Shown: in pieces, positions 1-18,000 of the stretch
How the letters are laid out: each line of letters opens with the position of its first letter
Position numbering within the stretch: the stretch's first letter is position 1
DNA from: Gemmatimonadota bacterium
GTDB taxonomy: Bacteria; Gemmatimonadota; Gemmatimonadetes; Palauibacterales; Palauibacteraceae
Assembly (NCBI GenBank): GCA_039588275.1
Contig: JBDHAC010000009.1
Location: forward strand, 1 to 64,000
Direction of reading: 5' to 3'
Length of the DNA: 64,000 bases
Made by a program: the position numbers

Positions 1-3000
1 CATCCCGTGCTTTCGAACCAATCCACCATGAATAGCGCCCTGACCCCCGCCTCGCTATGTACAGATCCGACGCCGCGTTGAGTCAAACTCCAACGCCCGG
101 CGGGTGTTCCGTCCAGAACACCGGAGTCTTCAGGTGGACGCCTCGGAGCGGATCCAGGGGGGTCGCTCCCCGCCTGCCTGCGCGCGGTTAGCCATGACTC
201 GCCTTCGGCCTCGGTGCGGCAGGGCCTGTGCCCACCCCGCGACGTCTCTCCATCTCCTTTATGCATTTTGGGTTACGGTGCGTGGGGGACTATCGGAGCC
301 CAGAGCGCTATCCCAAAATGTCCCAACACCGGGAGATCCTCCCCGTAACTGCGTCATCGCGACGATTCTCGCGCCAGGGTTGGGCTCATGGCGCCTTCGT
401 TCGTTCCTGAGCAAGGGTTCACCGACAAGTCTCCCGGCTGACTGATAGATGACGAATCGTGCCTCGAAAGTGCCGTGAACGATCTGACCTGGGGGGTGGG
501 TGGGTCGGCCCCCCGCCAGCTCCAGGCTCGCGGTCAACAGGCAAAATTCGGCCTTATGGACCTTGCGAGGGCCGATTTATTCGTGTATCGTTATATAGTT
601 CAATGAGTTACGTATGATGACACGGGACATAATGTCACGCTCCCGGCGTCGTCTGGCCTTTGTCGACACGTTGTCAGCGAGCCGTCCAGGCTCCCCCAGT
701 AACAGTGGCGCCGAGGCCGGGTTTGGCTCCGGAGGGCAGAGCGCCCCGAAGGGTCCCAAATACGCGGGGCATTCTGGTTGCGCTATTGTCGCAGACTGTC
801 CCAGCAAACAGGGGAGGCGTCCCTGACCCAGATTGGGAAAAGCCTCATGATATCAACGGATTCGTGCCTCCAAGGGCTCGGTGCGGGTTTTGCACCTCGC
901 GCGTGCGTAGGATTGTGTCGAGCGGACGGGCCCGTAAGGCGAAACGGGCGATCGACCCGCAGAGAACGCGATAACTGTCAAACTGTCAGGTGGTGACCAT
1001 GAAAGACTCACGTAAGCATACGTCGCTCGCGTGGGCCGGTCTCGTGCTCCTCGCCGGCATCTTCGTGGGTTGTACCGACGAGGAAACCGTGTTCGTGGAG
1101 CGGCCCTTCTTCGATGACCCGCCCGCCAACGCCGGGGGTTTCCTGGGCTGGGACCAGCCAACTGAGAAGCTGACGGTGTGCGGGAACTGCCACGTCGGCC
1201 AGCAGAGCGGCTACGAGCTCACCAACCACGCCGATGCGTGGAACACGCTGCAGAATAACCCGAATGCGCAGGAATTCTGCGAGAACTGCCACACCGTCGG
1301 CGGCTACGGCAACCAGACGGACGAGGGCGGTTGGGCGACCACGGCCGATGAGCGCTATCTCGACGTGCAGTGCGAGAATTGCCACGGCCCCGGTGAGGCG
1401 CATGTGAGGAACCCGGATGCTGGCGCCAAGCCGCAGGCCGAGGCCGCGGTGGGGCTCGATACCGGCACGGGGTGCGGGGAGTGCCACGAGGGCACGCACC
1501 ACGGCTTCGTGGACGAGTGGCTCGACTCGCCGCACTCGCAAGTCGTCGGCTTCGCGGCAGCCCGGGCAGCGTGTGAGCGCTGCCACAAGGGTCAAGGGAC
1601 CCTCACGGCGTGGGGTGAGAACGCGGACTACGTCGAGAAGGATGGCGACGCGCTCGCGGTCGTCTGCGTCGTATGCCACGATCCCCACGATCGGACGAAC
1701 GAGCACCAGCTGCGCTTCCCGGTCAGAACGAACGTGATCGAGAACCACCTGTGTGCCCAGTGTCACGATCGTCGAACGGTTCCCGATCCCGGCTCGTCGC
1801 ACGGCCTCCACCCGCACGCGCCCGAAGCGGCATTGCTCGTCGGAGAGGCAGGTTGGTTCCCGCCGGGTGCGGGCTTCGACCCGGGTCAGATCATCGCCAC
1901 GCACGGAAGCGAGGGGAACCCCGAGCTGTGTGCGACCTGTCACCTGCCTTCGTTCGAAGTGACAGACCCGGGCACCGGCGACCACATCTTCTCCGTGACG
2001 GGGCACCTGTTCCGGCCGATCCCGTGCGTGGATGCGCTGGGGGTCCCCGAAGGGTTCGGGGTCGATTGCGGGCTCACCACCGCGGAGCGCTATTACACGG
2101 GGTGCACCGGGGGCGGGTGCCACTTCAACGAGCAGGCGGCAGCCTCGGCGATCACGTCCAAGTCCAACACGATCCAGTTCCTCGCGGACGAGGTGCACCA
2201 CCTGCTCGACATCGTGGATCCGAATGGTGAAGACCCGGGTGGCGAGATCGATGCCACCAATCCGTCGTTCACGGTGGCGGAGGGGGCGCTATTCAACCAC
2301 TCGCTTGCCGAGCACGGCGACGAGGATTTCGGGACGTTCACGGTGCTCGGATCGACCGCCCACAACCCGTTCCTGATGGAGGCGCTGCTGATCGCCAGCA
2401 TCCAGGCCCTCCAAGACGAGTACGGCGTGTCGGGGCGCATCGAGCGCGACTGGGACCTCGAGCTGCAGAAGGTCCTGAACAGCGTGCCCAGGTAACGAAG
2501 GACAGGTTTGACAGCTATCATACGGGCCGAGGGGTGACCCTCGGCCCGCTCGCAAGGGGGTCAAGGCCGCGTTCGGAAGGTGACGGACGCGCCCGGCGGG
2601 ACGTCTAGTGTGCGGCGGCCCTCTCGACAATCGAAGAAGGGCGCACGGACTCTGAAAGCGGAGCGAAAGAACATGACCCGAATCGGCCCGATTGCGGCCA
2701 TTATCGCCCTCTGCGCTGGGCTCATCGCGACGACCACCGCCATCGCTCAAGAAGCGCCGGCGAAACCACCCGTCGTCCAGCACGATCTCGAGGGGCGCAG
2801 CGCGTGCCTCGCTTGTCATGGCGGCGCGATGGAGGCGATTCCCGCCGTTCCGGAGAGCCACACCAGCCGCCCCGACGAGACGTGCCTCTGGTGCCACGCC
2901 GCCGGCGCGCAGATCCAGACGACCGACCCGAAGACGATCTCGCACGATCTCGAAGGTCGCAGCGCGTGTCTGATGTGCCATGCGGCCGGCGTCATGGAAG

Positions 3001-15000: not shown

Positions 15001-18000
15001 CACCCGACGTGGAGAGACGATGGAGATCGCGCGGAACACACCCAGCGTGTGCCTGGGTTGTCACGCTCCGAGCGCGGAGGAGCACCAGGCCGCCGGTGTA
15101 GATTGCGCGAAGTGCCATGTGCCGATTGCGGACGCGCCCGACTTGAGCGCGGAGCGGATCGCCGCGTTCCCGCGCCCGGCGGATCACGAGTCGGACGACT
15201 ACGTCGCCGCACACGGCGGCCTTGGCGAGGCCGATGCGCAGCGGTGCTCGGTGTGCCACGCGCAGGAGAGCTGCAGCCGCTGCCACGTCAACGCGGATCG
15301 GCTTCCAGCGATTCGCGACCTGTCGTCGGATGACCGGGTGGCGGGCCTGGTGGCCGGGACGCCCGGAGTGTGGCCCAGGCCGACCAGCCACGAGTCGGCG
15401 GACTGGCTGAACACGCACGGCGGACAGGCGGCGGAATCGATCGAGAGCTGCGCCAGCTGCCACGCCCAGGAGAGCTGCGCGACGTGCCATGGAGAGGAAG
15501 CCGAGCGGCTCGCCGACGGACTCTCGAAGCAGCGCCCCGGTGGCCCGCAGGGGGCTGGAACGGTGGCCGTGCGCCCACCCGGGCATACGCCGAGCTTCGT
15601 GACGGAGCACGGCACCGCCGCGGCCGTCGAGCTGCCGCAGTGCAACTCGTGCCATGCGGAATCGTTCTGTGCCGATTGCCATGATGGGCCTGCAGCTCCG
15701 CGATTCAACGTGGAGAGCGCGGCCGGCTTTCACCCGGCGAACTTCGTCACCCGTCACGGCGCGGAGGCGTTCGCCCGGCAGACGCAGTGCAGCTCGTGTC
15801 ACTCGACCGAAGTGTTCTGCCGTGACTGCCATCAGCAGGTCGGCATCGGCCAGAGGGGGACCACGACGGGTGGGGCGTTCCACGATGCCCAACCGGGGTG
15901 GCTGCTCGCCCACGGTCAGGCGGCCCGTCAGGGCCTCGAGACCTGCACGGGTTGCCACGCTCAGCAGTCATGTCTGAAGTGCCACTCGGCGAGGAGCGGC
16001 TGGCGGGTGAGCCCGCACGGTCCCTCGTTCGACCCGAGTCGGGTGCAGGACCGAAGCACCATGTCGTGCGGGATCTGCCACTTCTCGTTCCAGCTCGATC
16101 CATAGCGGCCGCCGCCGGCCCCTGGCTGCCGGTGGACCGATTCCCCGGATGAGTCGCGAGGAGCGGAGGAGCAAGATAGGATAATAAGGGGTTGCGGGTC
16201 CATCAGTCGGGATCGCCCCCTCCGCGAGTCCGGCACCGGACCCGCCGCCCCGCCTGTGCATCTCGGCGTGACTGCGCCGAAAGAGAAGCTTCTGGTCGGC
16301 CGCCGCGGTTGGAGGTGGCGTCGGCAGACAGGAAGGGGGTTCACATGAACGCCCAAATCCAAGCCCACGCTCATCAGGGGCGCCGCGTGGTGTTCGCGGC
16401 GCTTTGTGGGCTGTTCGTCGGGTCCGCGAGCCTGGTGGGGCAGGCGGCGGCCGGGCCCACGCAGAACGCCGCCGCCGGGGCGGCGGTCTTCGGCTCCAAG
16501 GGCTGCGTCCAGTGCCACGCGATCAAGGCCATGGGTGGAGGGGCAGGACCCGATCTGGGCCTCATTGAGGAGCGCCGCTCGTTCTTTCAGCTGGCGGCGG
16601 CGATGTGGAACCATCTCCCCGCCATGCACGCGACGATGGCGGAGGCCGGTACCGAGCGCCCGAGGCTCTCGGCCCAGGAGACCGGTGATCTCATCGCCTT
16701 CCTGTTCACGCTCGATTACTTCGACGCGATCGGGAGCGCGGACAGCGGACGGGCCCTATTCGCCGAGAGGAAATGCGTGCTCTGCCATCAAGTGCAGGGC
16801 GCCGGAGGGGTGATCGGGCCCAGCCTGGATTACCTGAGCCAGTACAGTTCGCCCATGTTTGTGGCCGCCGCCATGTGGGGGCACGGCCCCGGCATGGCGG
16901 AGACGATGAGGTCTCTGCGCGTCGAGCGGCCCCGGCTTACCGGAAGCGAATTCCGGGATCTGATGGCGTTCTTCCAATCGGTCTCTGAAGCCTCTCACGG
17001 GGGACCGATGTACGTTTTGCCCGGACGCGCGGACGTGGGGCGAGAGCTGTTCAGCAGCAAGTCGTGCCTGCGCTGCCACAGCGTGCGGGGGAGCGGAGGG
17101 CAGATCGGACCGCCACTGGGTGGCCGGGGGCTGGAATGGAGCGCGTCCGACTTCGTCGCGGCCCTGTGGAACAAGGCGCCCTCCATGCAGGCGGCCATGC
17201 TCGCGGGAGGGATCTTGATCCCCGACCTGAGTGCGGAAGAGATGGCGGATCTCGTGGCCTACCTCTACTCCGTCAACTACTTCAGCGAGACCGGTGACAC
17301 GCGTCGTGGTCGCCAGCTCGTCACTCAAAAGGGCTGTCTGCAGTGTCACGGGCTCGATGCTCGCGGGGGGACGACGGCTCCCGACCTCGCCGAGATCACC
17401 GGGCTCGTAACCCAAACCGAGGTCGTCTCGGCGCTCTGGAGCCACACTACCAGCGGTGTGGAGACATCGGCAGGCGAGTTGGCCGGCTGGCCTGCGTTGA
17501 GCGCGTCGGACATGGCGGATCTGGTGGCCTTCCTGCGCGGCTTGCGACAGGCTCCGTGACGCGGGCGCGCGCGATCACCATTGGGGGCTGGCTGGCTCTC
17601 GCTGCCCTGGCCGCCCCCTCGGCTGCGTTCGGCCAGCAACCGGCCGATGAAGGCTGTGTGACCTACCACGGCGCCCTCGGCGACGAGCGTCCTCGGACCC
17701 GGTCGAGAGCTTCTCCGAAGACGAACACCTGCTCCAACTGCTACCCGGCTCATCAGATCCTTCAGACGTCGGATCCCCAATCCAGCGGCTACCCACACAA
17801 CGTGGCTGGATTGTGTGGCGGGTATCAGGTGGACGTTTCAGCTGGATGCGCCTCAAGTTTGCGTTTTCAGAGCCTTTCGAGGCATGCTACGGTTGAAGAA
17901 GGCACTGAAGTACCCGAGGACCCGTTTGTGGTCCCGATGAGCCGATGAAGAACAAACGATGCTCCGGTCGGCGGTGCAGTAGGAAGGTGGTTCGCGCATG

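Follow-up and report, generated by a model that had tools for sequence, protein, structure and literature searches.

The 64,000-nucleotide stretch analysed here (the window), from a sediment bacterium of the phylum Gemmatimonadota, carries a gene cluster that we read as a trans-envelope electron path, in which a non-bifurcating link from quinone to cytochrome c feeds a porin-cytochrome (Pcc-type) conduit. We put the probability of this reading at roughly 60%. The link is a conserved relative of complex III that has lost the defining iron-sulfur centre and quinol site, and its mode of electron transfer has for that reason probably not yet been described.

Recounting from the proteins bore out two statements of the genome-wide survey's note, namely that eleven co-directional genes lie at 999-16105 and that they hold 87 haem motifs (8, 4, 9, 21, 11, 19 and 13 CxxCH, and another 2 in the 5' fragment of g00819); g00809 and g00814 each have one extra CX4CH motif. 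The reported end at 16105 is too early: genes of the cluster continue to 22182, all features being on the forward strand. The extended cluster (999-22182) has 104 CxxCH motifs. Past 16105 are two tetra-domain class I cytochromes c of 4 CxxCH each (16345-17559 and 17998-19221, 68% identity) and, between them, a decayed fragment similar to the start of a 9-haem cytochrome (17570-17950), presumably the remnant of a tandem duplication. A second 9-haem cytochrome with a C-terminal anchor (19221-20543; 33% identity to g00813) follows as partner of a canonical Rieske/cytochrome b pair, 4.5 kb downstream, that had been overlooked. Its Rieske protein (20565-21035; Tat RRRF, CTHLDC, CACH) is the sole ORF in the assembly with both boxes, and its cytochrome b (21085-22182) has four haem His and PEWY.

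The barrel g00818 (13193-14701) carries a signal peptide and, as described before, belongs to no known family: there was no Pfam or NCBIfam match at E<=0.01, no MtrB/PioB family match in the Pfam and NCBIfam scan, and no sequence match in the PDB. Its outer-membrane barrel fold stood, and our own model (pLDDT 87.9, pTM 0.80) narrows the 22-24 strands proposed earlier to 22 transmembrane strands with no plug. The likeness to MtrB was recovered as one among many barrel matches, at rank 20 in Foldseek and rank 16 in VIA (Z 16.4, rmsd 4.8 over 357); the top five VIA rows had Z 19.0-18.2, and four were TonB-dependent barrels. The barrel profile was present in 109 of 251 genomes of the phylum, the same share as the 68 of 151 found previously.

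Of 79 barrel loci, 77 hold a g00819-family gene and 59 a g00809-family gene. The g00819 family is a 16-haem wire (16 CxxCH in 70 of 95 homologous ORFs), and g00819 itself had no PDB sequence match. In the predicted complex the C-terminal part of g00819 lies inside the g00818 lumen, with a score of 0.86 against 0.00 for the best control; 116 of 157 solved complexes attained the mark set for this score, compared with 2 of 215 mismatched pairs. Contacts agreed between runs to at least 80% (partner pLDDT 76) and fell on strands right round the barrel, and the C-terminal haems were placed at the invariant outer loop of g00818, although the prediction may echo a likeness to MtrAB. The plug-less barrel model, the controlled complex prediction, the OcwA/OmhA fold described below and the gene neighbourhood support a porin-cytochrome conduit. 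To this extent the survey's interpretation holds, but the Rieske/cytochrome b pair within its range is not a Q-cycle complex.

In this genome g00819 (14698-16105) is broken. The reported frameshift is present and its cause can be specified as a 32-bp deletion near 15008, with which one CxxCH was also lost, leaving 2 + 13 motifs in two frames. The break parts the signal peptide from the 13-haem portion, a consequence missed earlier, and the copy of the conduit in this genome may be non-functional. That the conduit here is in decay and has ceased to function is a possibility to be taken seriously, if not the one we would choose, and it is compatible with our preferred reading. Besides the deletion, it is favoured by the fragment at 17570-17950 (17444-17852 recurs unchanged in a contig of run X1) and by g00812, the most deviant of 31 copies, which departs from 11 of 130 conserved columns, more than any of its 30 homologues. 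The other 13 of the 14 proteins tested, however, fall within the range of their homologues, and faulty assembly could account for the deletion; the contigs listed did not span it.

The lipoprotein cytochrome g00809 (999-2495; 8 CxxCH and 1 CX4CH) is a candidate cell-surface terminal cytochrome. It has the fold of OcwA (6I5B; VIA Z 17.3, rmsd 3.2 over 332 aligned) and OmhA (6QVM; Z 16.5, rmsd 4.0 over 347), the sole Foldseek matches at E<=0.001, and shares their nine haem motifs when its CX4CH is included, a motif that is invariant for g00809 (63 of 63 rows). The available text on OcwA describes it as surface-associated and iron-reducing (PMC7829351). Both proteins were described from monoderm cell walls, whereas g00809 comes from a diderm, is a lipoprotein (69 of 80 homologues show the lipobox pattern) and is encoded next to a barrel. 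The small signal-peptide cytochrome g00810 (2670-3077), with 4 CxxCH as two repeated di-haem units, is a candidate periplasmic shuttle.

Several inner-membrane modules would connect the quinone pool with the wire: a NapC-type 21-haem cytochrome, two CbcL-like units, the canonical complex and the degenerate module g00811-g00814. One CbcL-like unit is the fusion g00817 (10351-13182), with 19 CxxCH and an FdnI/HydC-type cytochrome b domain. The other appears from sequence identity to be a split pair, in which g00815 (8196-9503; 11 haems, C-terminal TM helix) is 36% identical to g00817 and the FdnI/HydC-type membrane cytochrome b g00816 (9503-10354) is 42% identical to its membrane domain. The Ni_hydr_CYTB matches reported for g00816 and the g00817 C-terminus were reproduced (8e-8 and 1e-7). 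The layout of g00817 is like that of CbcL, MtrH and MtoC and within the 3-23 haems given for the family in the accessible part of PMC6295460, g00815 and g00816 being a two-gene version. Unlike in the CbcL, CbcBA and NapC systems, the quinone modules here all share one cluster with the conduit. Such parallel modules would let the cell choose routes of differing proton yield as the outside redox potential shifts, as Geobacter does with ImcH, CbcL and CbcBA.

Electrons could also travel inward, from reduced minerals, humics or partner cells, with the two-haem cytochromes b reducing quinone on the cytoplasmic side and generating proton-motive force for respiration with oxygen or another acceptor. 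This agrees with the several matches to haem-copper oxidase subunit I that the genome contains and with the occurrence of CbcL/MtoC-type proteins in Fe(II) oxidisers and Fe(III) reducers alike (PMC6295460, available portion). We consider uptake rather unlikely, as the presumed surface protein belongs to the OcwA/OmhA type known from Fe(III) reducers and the set of parallel quinone modules is reminiscent of electron export in Geobacter; respiratory export is somewhat more likely. Because the genome holds, besides the oxidases, ACIII-like and Qrc-like complexes and a NiFe hydrogenase, its content fixes neither lifestyle nor direction.

The degenerate module begins with g00811 (3186-3653), previously called a Rieske protein. 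This Rieske-fold membrane protein has none of the four [2Fe-2S] ligands and no Tat motif; its boxes read SPADGC and SPCTH, and only the disulfide pair of the box cysteines is retained. Among the 120 homologues listed, all have lost the ligands, all keep the disulfide pair and none has Tat. The assignment of g00812 (3622-4929) as a 7-TM cytochrome b, with b6 and subunit IV fused, was confirmed by 7 hydrophobic segments, but its place in a Q-cycle complex was not: the Qo motif is STWV and the Qi Asp is lost. Its family keeps the four haem His (31 of 31) and has [ST][TS]W where canonical proteins have PEWY (which occurs in 46 of 46 canonical rows but in 0 of 31 here). New polar residues are invariant (T186, E189, R246, H270, D317), and the clade, once past its long stem, evolves at about the same slow pace as the canonical one. 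The 9-haem g00813 (4866-6179), with a C-terminal membrane anchor, occupies the cytochrome c1 position. The N-terminally anchored 21-haem g00814 (6077-8191) begins, like NapC, NirT and CymA, with a NapC/NrfH-type domain (Cytochrom_NNT 8e-10, NrfH 3e-16), and its first-haem motif CxxCHxM is kept in 26 of 26.

The module thus resembles bc1/b6f in gene order, folds, haem His, Rieske disulfide pair and membrane-anchored c-type partner, and differs in having no cluster ligands, Tat export, PxWY or Qi Asp and in a Thr at the position of yeast G143. With both b haem ligand sets kept and the [2Fe-2S] ligands and PEWY gone, bifurcation, the defining bc1/b6f reaction, is not possible as known, judged from these residues. 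That this is a conserved form had been overlooked. The four-gene order was the same in 24 of 24 fetched genomes. The module was found in 25 of 251 genomes of the phylum, all 25 of which also hold the barrel, compared with 109 of the 251 as a whole, a count in which related genomes are not independent; it is accessory, since 84 of the 109 barrel carriers are without it.

We propose that the degenerate module would act as a plain two-haem transmembrane wire, in the manner of CbcL/FdnI-type proteins, from a cytoplasm-side quinone site to the 9- and 21-haem cytochromes, with the empty g00811 as a structural cap. The 16-haem g00819 would thread the plug-less barrel, as modelled, and exchange electrons in either direction with g00809. 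The same module, as sampled in Eisenbacteria, retains its Rieske protein but lacks one haem bH ligand (20 of 20); because bH is dispensable there, its retention in 31 of 31 argues for a transmembrane electron role. Against this reading, haem bL in solved bc complexes is too distant from the haem of cytochrome c1 for electrons to pass directly.

Degenerate and canonical pairs might instead form a natural heterodimer, with one active Qo and electrons crossing from bL to bL into the second bH/Qi arm. In favour of such a dimer, a second cytochrome b match occurs in 23 of 24 other carriers, often within 4-20 kb, and the bH-less Eisenbacteria form, which needs an exit from bL, is accompanied by a canonical four-His PEWY cytochrome b in 5 of 5 genomes tested. 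We nevertheless regard it as improbable. In one genome (G191; 4 contigs, 96% complete) only the degenerate pair turned up, the searches giving neither a further cytochrome b nor a canonical bc-type Rieske; in another (G016) the second complex is more than 1 Mb away. The second complex is also of three types (PEWY long, PEWY fused to cytochrome c, and PDWY), the canonical module stands without the degenerate one in 35 of 79 barrel loci against 9 with it, and the degenerate module retains its own 9-haem partner.

Slightly more doubtful is that the degenerate pair is only a membrane scaffold with structural b haems, the NapC domain doing the quinol chemistry. The conserved CxxCHxM of g00814 suits this, and Q-cycle parts were lost in two different ways in two phyla, as if the chemistry were redundant. 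The four His and the invariant polar residues are kept, however, the clade's slow change after its stem resembles that of the canonical one, and the Eisenbacteria form indicates that bH can be lost without loss of the gene. Very unlikely is that the barrel serves as a pore through which a soluble acceptor enters, to be reduced in the periplasm, as proposed for ExtI and selenite. In favour of this, g00809 is also like NrfA/octahaem reductases (Z 13.9-12.6), and the available text of PMC5877670 links selenite/tellurite reduction to the Geobacter ext cluster, in which a porin, multihaem cytochromes and Rieske/cytochrome b genes come together. Against it, the model puts g00819 in the barrel lumen, the catalytic reductases come clearly behind OcwA and OmhA in the ranking, and ExtI is predicted in that text with 12 transmembrane segments, not 22.

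The proposed two-haem wire feeding a conduit has partial counterparts. MtrCAB of Shewanella (PDB 6R2Q) and MtoAB/PioAB likewise combine a plug-less barrel with a multihaem cytochrome in its interior and a lipoprotein cytochrome on the outer side; here, 22 strands are formed in about 455 residues against the 649-residue MtrB chain, the wire belongs to a 16-haem family and the surface protein folds like OcwA. Compared by description in the accessible text, Geobacter Pcc (OmbB-OmaB-OmcB; PMC4245776) shares the combination of a porin gene and multihaem cytochromes, periplasmic as well as outer, and ExtHIJKLMNOPQS/Cbc6 (PMC5877670) the Rieske and cytochrome b genes in a porin cluster; the linkage of porin clusters to such genes is already published (PMC5877670, PMC13264449, available portions). 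Both window cytochromes b match ExtP, under cut-off, and g00812 had no ExtQ match in the family scan. The descriptions call ExtO a Rieske Fe-S protein. The G. metallireducens member of subfamily L has an S-x-W Qo motif, SAWF (PMC5600118), but the subfamily is mostly split and carries CxGG, g00812 being long and without that Cys. ImcH, compared by description like the other Geobacter proteins, has 3 TM helices; g00814 has one, and 21 haems. PCC3/PCC4 (He et al. 2017, PMC5566968) also cluster a porin, large multihaem cytochromes and a membrane cytochrome b, yet the inner-membrane protein there has two WX3HX13H motifs and SGXXG, neither of which is present in g00816 or g00817.

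The genome-wide survey's note had described g00809-g00819 (999-16105, plus strand) as a cluster of multihaem cytochromes, and six-frame translation of the eleven genes confirmed that it is real, with 8, 4, 9, 21, 11, 19 and 2+13 CxxCH motifs (87 in total). All eleven genes are co-directional as claimed, but the border at 16105 did not hold: cytochrome genes on the same strand continue to 22182, which brings the total to 104 motifs. The genes added downstream of g00819 are two for 4-haem class I cytochromes and one for a second 9-haem cytochrome, besides a decayed fragment and a Rieske/cytochrome b pair that ends at 22182. 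At 16345-19221 a tetra-domain class I cytochrome c is duplicated in tandem; the copies share 68% identity and are separated by the decayed 9-haem fragment, which L001, a related barrel locus, lacks. Most large multihaem proteins of the assembly (4.1 Mb, 86% complete) are encoded on this contig, C9, as is the single ORF in which both Rieske boxes occur. A scan of 1-20000 for sigma-70 promoters and terminators gave no signal above shuffled sequence. Most likely the cluster encodes a porin-cytochrome electron conduit that is connected to the quinone pool at several points.

We examined the Rieske and cytochrome b pair that the survey had placed inside the cluster, and its unusual state, which the survey had overlooked, is the most striking feature of the locus. 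The Rieske fold (g00811) and the four haem histidines (g00812) were both recovered; the machinery of a Q-cycle was not, and its loss is conserved. Ser, Ala, Ser and Thr occupy the four ligand positions of g00811, and among 120 homologues listed out of 197 neither Rieske box occurs in any, while both disulfide cysteines are present in every one. All 31 aligned members of the g00812 family retain the four haem histidines. The PEWY motif is found in 46 of 46 canonical cytochrome b sequences; the corresponding positions of the g00812 family read mostly S, T, W, V/I. Thr is invariant (31/31) at the site that we take, with numbering placed by motif, to be the equivalent of yeast G143; the family has no Qi aspartate and has acquired four near-invariant residues, E189, R246, H270 and D317. 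Operation of g00811-g00813 as a Q-cycle complex was therefore rejected, as the cluster ligands and the Tat motif were each found in 0 of the 120 listed homologues and P-x-W-Y/F in 0/31, the four histidines alone being kept. Cluster ligands, Tat motif, four histidines and PEWY are all present in the canonical module at 19221-22182.

Orthologues of g00812 (at least 52% identity) were found in 25 of 251 genomes including this one, in five family groups. The gene order Rieske, cytochrome b, 9-haem, 21-haem was retained in all 24 other genomes fetched, with 18 haems in the last protein of two. All 25 carriers also possess the barrel, which in 20 of the 24 others lies no more than 30 kb away on the same contig; kin among them do not count as independent cases. 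The degenerate cytochrome b clade has a long stem (1.46 changes per column) and tips as short as those of the canonical clade, consistent with a protein that took on a new function and was then conserved, and not with decay. Fusion of the cytochrome b and 9-haem genes was dismissed, as they share one frame in only 2 of 33 ORFs, one of which crosses an N gap and the other resembles a frameshift.

Cluster-less Rieske folds occur in NirD and PSB33. Our literature search found no report of such a subunit in a bc complex, most subscription papers lying beyond its reach. When the g00811 profile was run against 1.8 billion representatives, the best 14 matches had neither box, and the 150 listed matches comprised 99 canonical proteins, 21 with one box and 30 with none (many fragments); cluster-less proteins of the g00811 type form a small clade. 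A separate Rieske-like protein, P0139, has both His ligands substituted and the Cys ligands retained. The top ESM Atlas match of g00811 was its own cluster; ranks 2 and 3 were unnamed clusters of 170-172 residues (score 0.89), commonest in Chloroflexota and Actinomycetota, which may be further degenerate Rieske families.

Judged by its residues, the g00811/g00812 unit has no cluster, no Qo motif and two ligated b haems. We infer that these haems would link the 9- and 21-haem cytochromes to a quinone site on the cytoplasmic side, passing electrons without bifurcation much as FdnI/HydC-type proteins do, and that the empty Rieske protein would cap and brace the dimer. The weak step of this scheme is electron exit from bL, which in solved bc complexes is too distant from cytochrome c1. 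The 21-haem g00814 has a NapC-type domain, with CxxCHxM in 26 of 26 sequences. An obligate heterodimer of degenerate and canonical cytochromes b was considered. Of the 24 other carriers, 23 gave a second cytochrome b match; these second proteins are of three different types, and in one genome (G016) the gene lies more than 1 Mb away. Repeated searches of another carrier, G191 (4 contigs, 96% complete), gave only the degenerate pair, which speaks against obligate pairing on the thin evidence of a single genome.

Matches to the degenerate Rieske profile (E<=1e-12) were found in 23 of 61 genomes of a phylum labelled Eisenbacteria and 5 of 61 of one labelled Krumholzibacteriota, the best no stronger than 5e-20; the loci compared were 20 of the former 23 and all 5 of the latter. 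Every Eisenbacteria locus had the four-gene order Rieske, cytochrome b, 9-haem, 17/18-haem (20/20). Their cytochrome b carries PPWY in 20/20, and the first bH histidine is replaced by Arg in 20/20 and the second by Thr in 15/20. All ligands and the Tat motif are present in 17 of the 20 Rieske proteins; in the remaining three, Asp replaces one His and the Tat motif is missing. A canonical four-His PEWY cytochrome b was also encoded in all five Eisenbacteria genomes tested. Two of the five Krumholzibacteriota loci have the four-gene order and a cytochrome b that is split but canonical throughout, and the other three are modules of the type found downstream of g00819. Beside the Eisenbacteria-type module, cytochromes of about 1070 residues with 42 CxxCH motifs are encoded at L130:11235-14480, L135:9372-12626 and L140:1450-4653.

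In a quick unrooted tree, a branch with support 90 separated the Eisenbacteria and degenerate groups from the rest. Both this tree and the one behind the stem length above were quick, midpoint-drawn and long-branched; they used 19 of 81 rows plus 4 new ones and 36 of 81 rows, respectively, and we claim no order of evolutionary events from them. The module appears to have given up the Q-cycle on two occasions, each time losing a complementary part of it. Gemmatimonadota would have lost the Rieske cluster and Qo site and retained a two-haem transmembrane wire; Eisenbacteria would have kept the cluster, Qo and bL and lost bH, a form that could split quinol electrons between high- and low-potential periplasmic chains; and the intact form would persist in two Krumholzibacteriota genomes. 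Tentatively, with a probability of roughly 0.3, we propose that in one Rieske/cytochrome b lineage electrons came to leave bL directly for a periplasmic multihaem chain, that half of the Q-cycle thereby became dispensable, and that the lineage was pared down twice, the Gemmatimonadota form feeding a new conduit family. That family occurs in roughly four of every ten genomes sampled from the phylum.

The barrel of this conduit, g00818, was modelled with AlphaFold2 (pLDDT 87.9, pTM 0.80); 22 transmembrane strands were counted in the model, a plug is absent, and the sequence carries an export signal. Pfam and NCBIfam scans gave no match at E<=0.01, a 49-row profile found no PDB chain at E<=1 though 6R2Q was present in the bank, and 30 ESM Atlas neighbours share no common Pfam family. 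Top structural matches by VIA were mostly TonB-dependent receptor barrels (Z 19.0-18.2, rmsd 4.2-4.9, 292-374 aligned); MtrB scored Z 16.4 (rmsd 4.8 over 357) and ranked 20 in Foldseek. Such matches to a predicted model point to a large barrel, not to MtrB kinship. We rejected membership of the MtrB/PioB/MtoB family on the failed Pfam, NCBIfam and PDB sequence searches and on the 22 strands, which are not MtrB-sized. No library match linked g00818 to the Geobacter Pcc porins OmbB/OmbC and ExtI, and no Geobacter Pcc structure was among the fold matches listed, results compatible with remote homology. Because identities among Pcc porins go down to 8% in the accessible part of PMC4245776, g00818 may be remote kin of OmbB.

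In the genome collection 113 relatives of g00818 were confirmed, and the best 80, representing 79 loci, were retained. The closest named relatives are Gemmatimonadota records (92% and 79%), which points to that phylum for this genome too, and 109 of the 251 genomes sampled from it gave a match to the profile. As three of the 79 loci are labelled Eisenbacteria or Krumholzibacteriota, the family is not restricted to one phylum. A gene of the g00819 family accompanies the barrel in 77 of 79 loci (both misses stop at or near a contig end) and one of the g00809 family in 59. Two barrel cassettes stand in tandem at L021 and head to head at L047. Our literature search, with most subscription papers out of its reach, found no report of this barrel, and the conduit is a new family inside the known porin-cytochrome kind.

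Sixteen haem motifs were counted in 70 of 95 ORFs homologous to g00819, a protein with no match among PDB sequences. Its C-terminal part (312 residues) was folded with the barrel because short family members retain that part. The complex scored 0.86, compared with 0.00 for the best control; the mark used was attained in 116 of 157 solved complexes, compared with 2 of 215 mismatched pairs. Runs shared at least 80% of contacts, with a partner pLDDT of 76. Predicted contacts are spread over strands all round the barrel, and the surest pairs link its invariant loop 275-291, which by strand counting probably faces outward, with residues 253-266 of the g00819 part. Likeness to MtrAB may account for part of this result. 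For the family, a g00819-type cytochrome is predicted to insert into the barrel as a wire; the gene is broken in the present assembly. Compared with L001, 32 bases are missing near 15008, so that one haem motif is gone and the signal peptide is separated from a 13-haem remainder. Two sequencing runs contain parts of the window, with no RNA run among those listed. Contigs of X1, a marine sediment run that may represent the sample of origin, are near-identical to pieces of the window; as none among those listed spans 15008, the deletion may be real or an assembly error. At 11 of 130 conserved columns g00812 deviates, more than every one of 30 homologues; the other 13 proteins tested were ordinary. 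The window's own copy of the conduit may be broken.

A lipobox pattern was found in 69 of 80 g00809 homologues, a count that we prefer to a looser one accepting any Cys (78/78). The g00809 model (pLDDT 91.4) matched only OcwA and the Carboxydothermus undecahaem OmhA in Foldseek at E<=0.001 (E 2e-8 and 8e-7, TMq 0.51-0.53), and VIA ranked the same two (Z 17.3 and 16.5) above NrfA-type reductases (13.9-12.6). As modelled, g00809 would share the fold of these surface cytochromes across most of its chain. OcwA is described as surface-associated and iron-reducing in the accessible part of PMC7829351. The lipobox and the predicted fold together make g00809 a candidate surface cytochrome. At L091 an OcwA-like lipoprotein gene is present in three tandem copies.

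The other quinone modules of the cluster are the CbcL-like g00817, its split paralogue g00815+g00816 and the canonical complex. By the definition of CbcL/MtrH/MtoC in the accessible part of PMC6295460, g00817 has the N-terminal multihaem region and the HydC/FdnI-like membrane domain with conserved His. With 1 TM and 21 motifs, g00814 does not fit ImcH, for which that text gives 6-10 haem motifs and an N-terminus with three TM helices. As a set these modules resemble the Geobacter ImcH/CbcL/CbcBA panel, whose members serve different potentials according to the accessible parts of PMC13591261 and bioRxiv 2021.04.15.440034. The genome encodes haem-copper oxidases, ACIII-like and Qrc-like operons, cytochrome c maturation genes and a NiFe hydrogenase, and either direction of electron flow fits because oxidases, these two operon types and the hydrogenase are all present. 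The futalosine MqnA/D family was not found in the 86%-complete assembly.

Porin clusters with Rieske/cytochrome b genes are described, in the portions available, for Geobacter extHIJKLMNOPQS (PMC5877670) and for karst MAGs (PMC13264449). Likewise, the accessible text tabulates CbcL and ImcH homologues of Gemmatimonadetes (PMC6295460) and records multihaem proteins in the phylum (PMC9769843). The two WX3HX13H motifs and SGXXG of the PCC3/PCC4 inner-membrane protein, as given in the part of PMC5566968 available, are absent from the window's membrane cytochromes. Published cytochromes b, from partial texts, include a subfamily K without one haem His and a subfamily L with SxWF (PMC5600118), and one PDWF branch that has no Rieske protein (PMC4122944). 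Subfamily L (Dibrova 2017) has a short cytochrome b with CxGG and a separate subunit IV with SxWF; g00812 was rejected as a member on its long chain, Ala/Leu at the Cys position and the lack of Phe after W. A search for short split relatives of g00812 gave 13 matches, 12 resembling contig-end fragments of the family and one with unrelated domains. The accessible parts of PMC13510729 and PMC11495043 contain nothing on the conduit or the degenerate module.

Quinol bifurcation via the Rieske cluster is regarded as the defining step of bc complexes, and a degenerate module together with a complementary Eisenbacteria form would surprise bioenergeticists. The conserved form without cluster and Qo motif and its bH-less sister would offer ready half-enzymes for studying how the Q-cycle can be rewired and how proton yield is adjusted by cells that respire extracellularly. 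The conduit, built on a barrel family missed by the Pfam and NCBIfam scans made here, suggests electron exchange between a phylum common in soil and sediment and minerals, humics or partner cells.

Adjoining the 3' end of the cluster (22317-24489) are genes for an M28 peptidase-PDZ protein and a double-zinc-ribbon membrane protein, with relatives in 12 and 8 of the 79 barrel loci, respectively; they are possibly assembly or quality-control factors. A lipoprotein-like gene with a single class I cytochrome c domain (25916-26936) is unlinked to the cluster. At 31183-41112, genes for molybdopterin dehydrogenase large and FAD subunits, an NCS1 permease, an acyl-CoA ligase, a cyclase and an amidase form an ordinary heterocycle catabolic cluster. 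Elsewhere in the genome, an ACIII-like operon is directly followed by a Qrc-like operon at L120 (G000:C62:3683-18520), with a further tetra-domain cytochrome c. Genes like those for hydrazine synthase alpha and beta-gamma subunits, far under curated cut-offs, lie at 5210-8757 of L123 (G000:C53), and at 279-6911 of L124 (G000:C84) CcmF/DsbE/CcmH-type maturation genes adjoin an 8-haem cytochrome with NrfC/NrfD-type partners.
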